A stretch of 64,000 nt of DNA, from positions 1,503 to 65,502 of the forward strand of contig JAGGZW010000130.1 in assembly GCA_021161825.1 (NCBI GenBank), in the 5' to 3' direction. A program made the translations under genes and the position numbers. This DNA comes from Thermoproteales archaeon. GTDB taxonomy: Archaea > Thermoproteota > Thermoprotei > Thermofilales > B69-G16. Positions within the stretch are counted from its first letter, which is position 1. Each line of letters begins with the position of its first letter. Positions 33,227-33,333 of this stretch are shown one piece after another. Under the pieces are notes generated by a model. That model ran no database searches, was not told the origin of the DNA, and saw nothing but the letters and a program-made list of their open reading frames with translations.

Positions 33227-33333
33227 CGGGCCCGCCGGGATTCGAACCCGGGACCTACGGCTTTCCTCCCCAGAGATAGAAGGCCGCCGCCCCCTCTGGG
33301 CTTCTTAACCTATCCAGGCTGGGCCACGGGCCC
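33227..33333 (-). tRNA. tRNA-Arg(UCU) with two introns (~18 nt in the D-loop; 14 nt canonical at 37/38)
   Basis: Acceptor, T arm and anticodon stem (GCGGC/GCCGT) are identical to the tRNA-Arg at 8318-8425. The loop CTTCTA[TCTCTGGGGAGGAA]A contains the canonical intron at 33263-33276. The D region is 28 nt between GCCC and GGGC, i.e. ~18 nt too long (about 33294-33311). Confidence 0.8.

Follow-up and report, generated by a model that had tools for sequence, protein, structure and literature searches.

The tRNA-Arg(UCU) gene and its surroundings

The window analyzed here (the whole stretch of DNA, 64,000 nucleotides in length) is archaeal, with a GC content of 37%, and carries genes for a 23S rRNA and an RNase P RNA of archaeal type along with many tRNA genes that contain introns. 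The DNA comes from an uncultured, heat-loving archaeon, a low-GC representative of the Thermoprotei; the nearest sequenced relative that we found is labelled Thermofilaceae. A tRNA-Arg(UCU) gene without an encoded CCA end is located on the minus strand (Table 1). Read from 33333 to 33227, with slashes at the predicted splice junctions, its first part is GGGCCCG UG GCCC AGCCUGGAU/AGGUUAAGAAGCCCAGAG/G GGGC G GCGGC CUUCUA/UCUCUGGGGAGGAA/, and the rest, after UCUCUGGGGAGGAA, is A GCCGU AGGUC CCGGG UUCGAAU CCCGG CGGGCCC G.

Table 1. Positions of the tRNA-Arg(UCU) gene, its parts, the upstream box and the second tRNA-Arg gene of the window.
Feature	Position	Strand	Length and content	Basis
tRNA-Arg(UCU) gene, complete pre-tRNA	33227..33333	-	107 nt; no encoded CCA	sequence, Rfam, ARAGORN
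Exon 1	33312..33333	-	acceptor 5' strand; U8 G9; D stem 5' strand GCCC; D-loop AGCCUGGAU (G18 G19 A20)	
D-loop intron (predicted)	33294..33311	-	18 nt; AGGUUAAGAAGCCCAGAG	BHB register, enforced-cloverleaf fold, L046
Exon 2	33277..33293	-	G21; D stem 3' strand GGGC; G26; GCGGC (anticodon stem 5' strand); loop CUUCUA (anticodon UCU, A37)	
Canonical 37/38 intron	33263..33276	-	14 nt; UCUCUGGGGAGGAA	BHB scan
Exon 3	33227..33262	-	A38; anticodon stem 3' strand; variable loop AGGUC; T arm; acceptor 3' strand; discriminator G	
A/T-rich TATA-like box	33360..33370	-	CTTTTAAAAAC; 27-37 nt upstream of the tRNA start	
tRNA-Arg(UCG) gene	8318..8425	-	108 nt	
29/30 intron of tRNA-Arg(UCG)	8374-8395	-	22 nt	
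37/38 intron of tRNA-Arg(UCG)	8354-8365	-	12 nt	

The exons form an archaeal tRNA-Arg cloverleaf, in which all seven pairs of the acceptor stem, the 4-bp D stem, the 5-bp anticodon stem and a perfect T arm (5-bp stem, GUUCRAAUC-type T loop GUUCGAAUC) are present. The stretches that do not belong to this cloverleaf are 18 of the 28 nt between the two strands of the D stem, and 14 nt after position 37. When both were cut out in silico, 75 nt were left, which ARAGORN identified as tRNA-Arg(tct). The uncut sequence gave an Rfam tRNA match with a score of 33.3 bits at 33227-33310, in an alignment truncated at the 5' end. The unconstrained minimum-free-energy fold of the precursor was not a cloverleaf (z = -0.6) and carries no information here; such folds are common among intron-containing precursors. 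The tRNA-Arg(UCU) gene itself is far beyond chance.

Unchanged copies of the 107-nt gene were found in five further metagenome contigs from different assemblies (L001-L004 and L067), all from the same species as the window (99% protein identity), with a different flank in L067. Since the gene is identical in five independent contigs, it is not an assembly artefact. The A/T-rich box upstream of the gene is probably its promoter: the TTTAAAAAC motif is also found 22 nt upstream of the gene that begins at 8425, and the other tRNA genes of the window have similar boxes in front of them. A perfect hairpin, CTCATGAA-AGTTTAC-TTCATGAG, is located at 33376-33398, where it separates the A/T-rich box from the stop codon of the radical-SAM gene upstream. 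In the sister strain L067, the stem of this hairpin is unchanged and its loop is inverted.

On the other side, 41 nt downstream of the tRNA gene and on the same strand, starts a gene for a MiaB/MtaB-like methylthiotransferase (31902-33185, minus strand) with UPF0004, Radical_SAM and TRAM domains. Enzymes of the MiaB/MtaB family modify residue 37 in tRNAs that read ANN codons. The adjacency of this gene to tRNA-Arg(UCU) may or may not be a coincidence.

The 37/38 and D-loop introns

Every intron placement was scanned for a bulge-helix-bulge (BHB) motif, defined as a central helix of 4 bp flanked on both sides by bulges of 3 nt, with a cut after the second nucleotide of each bulge. In canonical archaeal introns, the central helix includes the first two bases of the anticodon, as set out together with the BHB geometry in PMC4090602. 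The 14-nt intron that an earlier note on this DNA had proposed at 37/38 was found by the scan, with a good BHB motif. Its central helix, CUUC/GAGG, includes nucleotides 34-35 and is flanked by two opposite 3-nt bulges (UA/U and AA/A), an outer helix of 5 bp, which is the anticodon stem, and an inner helix of 2 bp.

The D-loop region of the gene has 28 nt, versus the usual 8-11 nt. The same note had placed about 18 extra nucleotides at 33294-33311, with pairing between CTGG in the exon and CCAG in the intron, and the scan arrived at exactly these coordinates: this is the sole placement that has a 4-bp central helix (exon CUGG, intron CCAG) and leaves a normal D arm after splicing at symmetric cuts. 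When the cloverleaf stems were enforced, the minimum-energy fold consisted of the D stem, a 3 × 3 internal loop and the CUGG/CCAG helix. The 3' cut site (AG/G) is in the AGG strand of the internal loop adjoining the D stem, and the 5' cut site (AU/A) is at the base of a 14-nt loop, with a weak inner helix at most. The predicted mature tRNA of 75 nt has the D-loop AGCCUGGAUG and retains G18, G19 and A20.

The D-loop motif was not a strict hBHBh' motif, in that the outer and inner helices had 1 bp each and the 3' site was not a true bulge. As modeled, the D-loop intron matches the relaxed class alone (BHL or hBH-like). Among shuffled inserts, an acceptable 4-bp helix was obtained in 6.7% of cases with Watson-Crick pairs only, and in 24.6% when G-U pairs were allowed. 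The helix by itself is barely beyond chance, and constitutes weak evidence.

Two other features of the D arm were considered and rejected. The sequence GCCCAG occurs as a direct repeat, in exon positions 10-15 and at the 3' end of the intron, and might be taken for a target-site duplication. However, the partner of CUGG must read CCAG, and the CCAG at exon positions 12-15 comes from the partly palindromic consensus of the D arm. An alternative hairpin between GCCC in the intron and the 3' strand of the D stem (GGGC) competes with the central helix and lacks BHB geometry.

Arginine tRNA introns in related archaea

For comparison, we used the shared 3' half to scan one genome per species, and an Arg(UCU) pattern to scan JGI metagenomes. 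Three of the matches (L044, L063 and L066) represent one Thermofilaceae genome, in which the proteins encoded by neighboring genes are 76-79% identical to those of the window. Its Arg(UCU) gene has the same exons with an uninterrupted 9-nt D-loop, so the 18-nt insert in the window is not part of the tRNA body. This relative has introns at 5/6 and 29/30 and none at 37/38.

The closest counterpart of the D-loop intron was found in the Arg(CCU) gene of L046 (Thermoproteales archaeon AUK141), which has near-identical exons and a similar intron of 17 nt that starts two nucleotides after G19, in the register predicted for the window. It differs in its anticodon, CCU, and in having no 37/38 intron. 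The central helix in L046 is CAGG/CCUG, so that the U-A pair of the window is replaced by A-U, a compensatory change. The two D-loop introns are alike at 12 of 18 positions; the p value is 0.0006 for the full-length comparison, and 0.05 when the last 6 nt, which are constrained by the exon, are left out.

Six other matches (L010, L039, L061, L062, L068 and L069; hereafter, the L061 group) have near-identical exons and an intron in the D arm. In this group, the intron is 17-19 nt long, lies 2 nt further 3' than in the window, at 22/23, and interrupts the D stem, which can only be rebuilt by its removal. It is present in the Arg(UCU) genes of L010, L039, L061, L062 and L069, and also in Arg(GCG), in L068. 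A G-U pair of the central helix at these loci becomes G-C in L069. The cut in the L061 group is four nucleotides after G19; as in the window, the intron begins with AGGU and the DNA reads GGATAG at the 5' junction. It is conceivable, although we consider it doubtful, that the D-arm introns of the window (UCU), L046 (CCU) and the L061 group (UCU and GCG) all derive from one old insertion, with a 2-nt shift of the junction between lineages and spread among isoacceptors by recombination or anticodon change. If true, these genes would form a natural series documenting the sliding of a junction in an endonuclease-spliced tRNA intron. In L068, the Arg(UCU) gene (~30-125) and the Arg(GCG) gene (~6040-6155), 6 kb apart, have the same sequence from position 1 as far as the anticodon loop, including the D-arm intron. 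This likeness points to either a recent duplication followed by an anticodon change or a gene conversion, in which the intron would have been carried along.

Other combinations of introns were seen in further relatives. The Arg(CCG) gene of L056 has introns at 29/30 and 37/38, as does the UCG gene of the window; Arg(CCG) of L050 has them at 32/33 and 37/38; and Arg(UCU) of L008 has the 37/38 intron alone. The exons of Arg tRNA genes in these archaea are thus near-constant, while the positions of the introns change freely.

L065 (~7440-7530) has the 3' part of an Arg(UCU) tRNA, starting at position 30, and the A/T-rich sequence before it, at least 170 nt long, contains no 5' half. A split tRNA gene or a very long 29/30 intron could explain this. 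The tRNA-Asp and tRNA-Glu genes of L073 (~1200-1600) contain additional inserts, located in the D arm or close to it, which the same genes of L070 (~6450-6570 and ~12300-12420) lack, a further case of variation in intron presence between close relatives.

A search for homologues of the upstream radical-SAM gene yielded four related loci, in which the tRNA-Leu, ThiL-like and radical-SAM genes are syntenic with those in the window. No tRNA-Arg gene follows the syntenic genes at that spot in any of the four, and the gain of the introns can therefore not be dated by synteny. In two related contigs (L072, 5818-6579; L073, 7413-8174), an integrase-like gene is located downstream of the radical-SAM gene, in the place occupied by tRNA-Arg(UCU) in the window; no tRNA remnant was seen at this site in L072 or L073. 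A scan of viral contigs with a pattern for Arg genes containing a D-arm insert gave only two matches, both spurious and in high-GC contigs.

Relationship to the tRNA-Arg(UCG) gene

The window contains a second tRNA-Arg gene, tRNA-Arg(UCG), in which the 29/30 intron forms a textbook full BHB with outer and inner helices of 5 bp each. The earlier note had described the acceptor, T arm, variable loop and anticodon stem of the two genes as identical, and our sequence comparison agrees: these parts and the D stem are the same in both genes, and the exons differ only in the D-loop (AGCUAGGAG in the UCG gene versus AGCCUGGAUG in the UCU gene) and at positions 36 and 37. Exon 3 of the UCU gene is identical to that of the UCG gene (8318-8353) and to that of many other Thermoprotei tRNA-Arg genes. 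The two genes also share the 37/38 position and carry their second intron at different sites, at 29/30 and in the D-loop, respectively, as had been noted.

This arrangement had been put forward as direct evidence for intron gain, loss or sliding after duplication. The anatomy on which that proposal was based stands, whereas a recent gain or loss is unproven and sliding is unsupported. The D-loop and 29/30 introns of the two Arg genes have no sequence similarity that would indicate sliding or transposition between them (p = 0.66), and sliding from 29/30 to the D-loop is unsupported for this reason. The two 37/38 introns are likewise unrelated, except for the part that is dictated by the exons (p = 0.66).

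The resemblance of the exons does not date a duplication either, because near-identical bodies of isoacceptors are normal in this genome, where four tRNA-Leu genes (19991-20075, 24600-24715, 36139-36239 and 59075-59188) have identical 5' halves. The 3' half of the UCU gene also recurs in the tRNA-Arg and tRNA-Lys genes of about 50 Thermoprotei genomes. Among the matches to the 32-nt 3' half (L007-L057), most genomes carry it in tRNA-Lys(UUU or CUU) genes. The presence of an identical 3' half in Arg and Lys genes across many Thermoprotei is in line with published shared tRNA halves. A 29/30 intron also occurs elsewhere, in Arg(CCG) of L056 and Arg(UCU) of L044. As both kinds of second intron are found in other lineages and in other Arg isoacceptors, the second introns were probably not acquired in this genome after a recent duplication. 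Differences in introns between paralogues, and gain by transposition, have been reported in Thermoproteales (Sugahara 2008 and Fujishima 2010, as cited in PMC4033280 and PMC4090602).

Alternative readings of the locus

The alternative that fared best retains the same gene and introns, and places the D-loop junctions 1-3 nt away from the BHB prediction. A 19-nt intron (gene positions 22-40) would leave the D-loop AGCCUGGAG, which is that of Arg(UCU) in the closest relative (L044), and an 18-nt intron shifted by 1-3 nt would leave AGCCUGGAUA, the D-loop predicted for the L061 group. Every variant that we tried, with shifts of 1-3 nt, was a valid tRNA-Arg(tct) according to ARAGORN, which therefore does not fix the D-loop junction, and the relaxed motif implies that the register is less tightly fixed. 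However, no alternative has a 4-bp helix in the BHB register, the predicted register is shared by L046, and the cuts made by the archaeal enzyme are fixed and symmetric with respect to the 4-bp helix (PMC4090602). Taken together, a shifted junction seems possible but unlikely, and we have moderate confidence that the junction is exactly as predicted; it may be displaced by 1-2 nt.

A second alternative is that the gene is a decaying pseudogene, and that its role is filled by another, intact Arg(UCU) gene at a different place in the genome. Our view is limited to 64 kb of the genome, and the four related loci contained no positional orthologue, both of which would fit such a scenario. On the other hand, all stems are perfect, all conserved tRNA positions are intact and the gene is preceded by a promoter-like box; five other contigs carry the sequence without change, among them L067 with its different flank; the metagenome scan for Arg(UCU) with this 3' half detected no second copy on similar contigs; and AGA is the main Arg codon. 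We consider a pseudogene very unlikely.

Harder still to credit is the possibility that the 18 nt are retained, giving a mature tRNA with an oversized D-loop of 28 nt. Although the BHB evidence at the D-loop is weak when taken alone, the D-loop is a normal 9 nt long in a relative whose exons are identical, and the nucleotides directly before the insert, A20 and G18-G19, are those through which the tRNA elbow forms its tertiary contacts. Moreover, the D-arm inserts of the L061 group have to be removed to rebuild the D stem, and excision of D-loop introns is known in Crenarchaeota.

Finally, the 77-nt tRNA-Pro(GGG) called by ARAGORN at 33227-33303 and the single-intron, 84-nt tRNA implied by the Rfam coordinates (33227-33310) were rejected as practically untenable, since both lose the true 5' end and discard the perfect 7-bp acceptor partner at 33327-33333 in favor of a mismatched acceptor stem, the "GGG anticodon" sits within the 37/38 intron, and ARAGORN miscalls other multi-intron Arg genes as well (L056 as Pro, L008 as Pyl and L050 as Ala).

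Function and proposed pathway

The preferred reading is thus a working tRNA-Arg(UCU) gene with two introns, in which we have high confidence. AGA accounts for 53% of the Arg codons in the long ORFs of the window; as the commonest Arg codon, it makes tRNA-Arg(UCU) necessary. A20 and C35 are the identity nucleotides for arginine, and both are present in every version of the gene. Residue 37 is A in the UCU gene and G in the UCG gene; A37 fits a tRNA that reads ANN codons and G37 fits a CGN reader. The sequence contains G18, G19, A20, C35 and A37, whose role in identity is textbook knowledge. Because of the share of AGA codons, the presence of A37, C35 and A20, and the TTTAAAAAC box upstream, the gene is probably functional and reads AGA, and it probably supplies the tRNA for the commonest Arg codon of the organism.

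In the pathway that we propose, the gene would be transcribed from its own A/T-rich promoter into a 107-nt precursor. This precursor would offer the 14-nt 37/38 intron in a standard bulge-helix-bulge motif and the 18-nt D-loop intron in a relaxed motif built on the CUGG/CCAG helix. The archaeal tRNA splicing endonuclease would presumably remove both; the enzyme, the exact cut sites and the order of removal are all predictions. An RNA ligase would then join the three exons, and CCA would be added post-transcriptionally. The crenarchaeal endonuclease is a heterotetramer, (alpha-beta)2, and accepts relaxed motifs. By analogy, based on the taxonomic placement of the host and on PMC4090602, the host would be expected to have an endonuclease of broad specificity, either an (alpha-beta)2 enzyme with the Crenarchaea-specific loop or an epsilon2 enzyme.

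Comparison with known systems

Non-canonical tRNA introns in archaea have been published, including introns at 20/21, 22/23 and 29/30, with up to three introns per gene and with relaxed motifs (PMC4090602). Genes with multiple introns, D-loop introns and 29/30 introns are known from Thermoproteales as well as from other Crenarchaeota. Rapid turnover of tRNA introns, for which a transposition mechanism has been proposed, is described for Thermoproteales in PMC4033280 and PMC4090602. The gene in the window resembles the multiple-intron tRNA genes of Thermoproteales and Thermofilum (Sugahara 2007, 2008; Fujishima 2010; as covered in PMC4090602 and PMC4033280) in combining a 37/38 intron with a second short (11-25 nt) non-canonical intron. 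As in those genes, the motifs are BHB or relaxed, the positions differ between paralogues and orthologues, and gene finders miss or miscall the genes. Compared to the published 20/21 class, the D-loop junction of the window, two nucleotides after G19 and before G21, is a minor positional variant.

The pre-tRNA-Thr2(UGU) of Aeropyrum pernix (Hirata et al. 2011, PMC3241643) likewise contains a crenarchaeal D-loop intron, which, according to that paper, is excised by the crenarchaeal endonuclease in vivo and in vitro, the (alpha-beta)2 enzyme cutting without a cofactor. There, the motif is described as a full BHB and the intron is the only one, whereas the gene described here has a predicted relaxed motif and a second intron. 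The bulge-helix-loop and hBH/HBh' motifs (Marck and Grosjean 2003; Tocchini-Valentini 2005; both as cited in PMC4090602 and PMC3241643) are similar to ours in having a 4-bp helix that is flanked on one side, with one cut in a loop. In the window, however, the 3' site is in the symmetric 3 × 3 internal loop that separates the D stem from the central helix, instead of in a clean 3-nt bulge.

The tRNA-Arg(UCU) gene of this uncultured low-GC lineage was in none of the sources searched. It is a fresh example, from an uncultured relative, of a type already described, and both its junction and its relaxed geometry are minor variants. Interruption of a tRNA gene by two short introns is a well-documented habit of these archaea. 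The gene raises no new question; together with its relatives, it adds one more data point on the fast turnover of introns in Thermoproteales-like archaea. Its main value lies in annotation, as ARAGORN gives tRNA-Pro(GGG) and Rfam truncates the gene. Since such tools miscall Arg(UCU) and overlook two of the tRNA-Leu genes of the window, essential tRNAs will seem to be missing from genome bins of this lineage.

Other RNA genes in the window

The two missed genes, tRNA-Leu(CAG) (36139-36239) and tRNA-Leu(UAG) (59075-59188), both on the minus strand and each with a 37/38 intron, were found through their T-loop motif; neither was detected by Rfam at the gathering threshold or by ARAGORN. tRNA-Leu(CAG) overlaps the first 17 codons of the ORF at 35123-36190, and for this reason the true start of the ORF is probably a later Met. 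tRNA-Leu(UAG) is located just upstream of the RNase P RNA (58675-59017). The 37/38 introns of Leu(UAA) and Leu(UAG) are clearly related, and both start with AUCUCGAGCAAAUAGGGCCGAGA; the short intron of Leu(CAG) is unrelated to these, and Leu(CAA) lacks an intron.

tRNA-Thr(GGU), on the plus strand at 51376-51473, has an insert of ~25 nt in the region of the variable loop that includes a perfect hairpin, CAGCUGCUAGCAGCUG, and is probably a non-canonical intron of the 45/46 type. In the 23S rRNA gene (minus strand), two stretches, at ~62150-62750 and ~63450-64000, have a GC content of ~30-35%, compared to 65-70% in the rest of the gene, and align poorly in Rfam. These stretches, the second of which runs past the end of the window, are probably rRNA introns.
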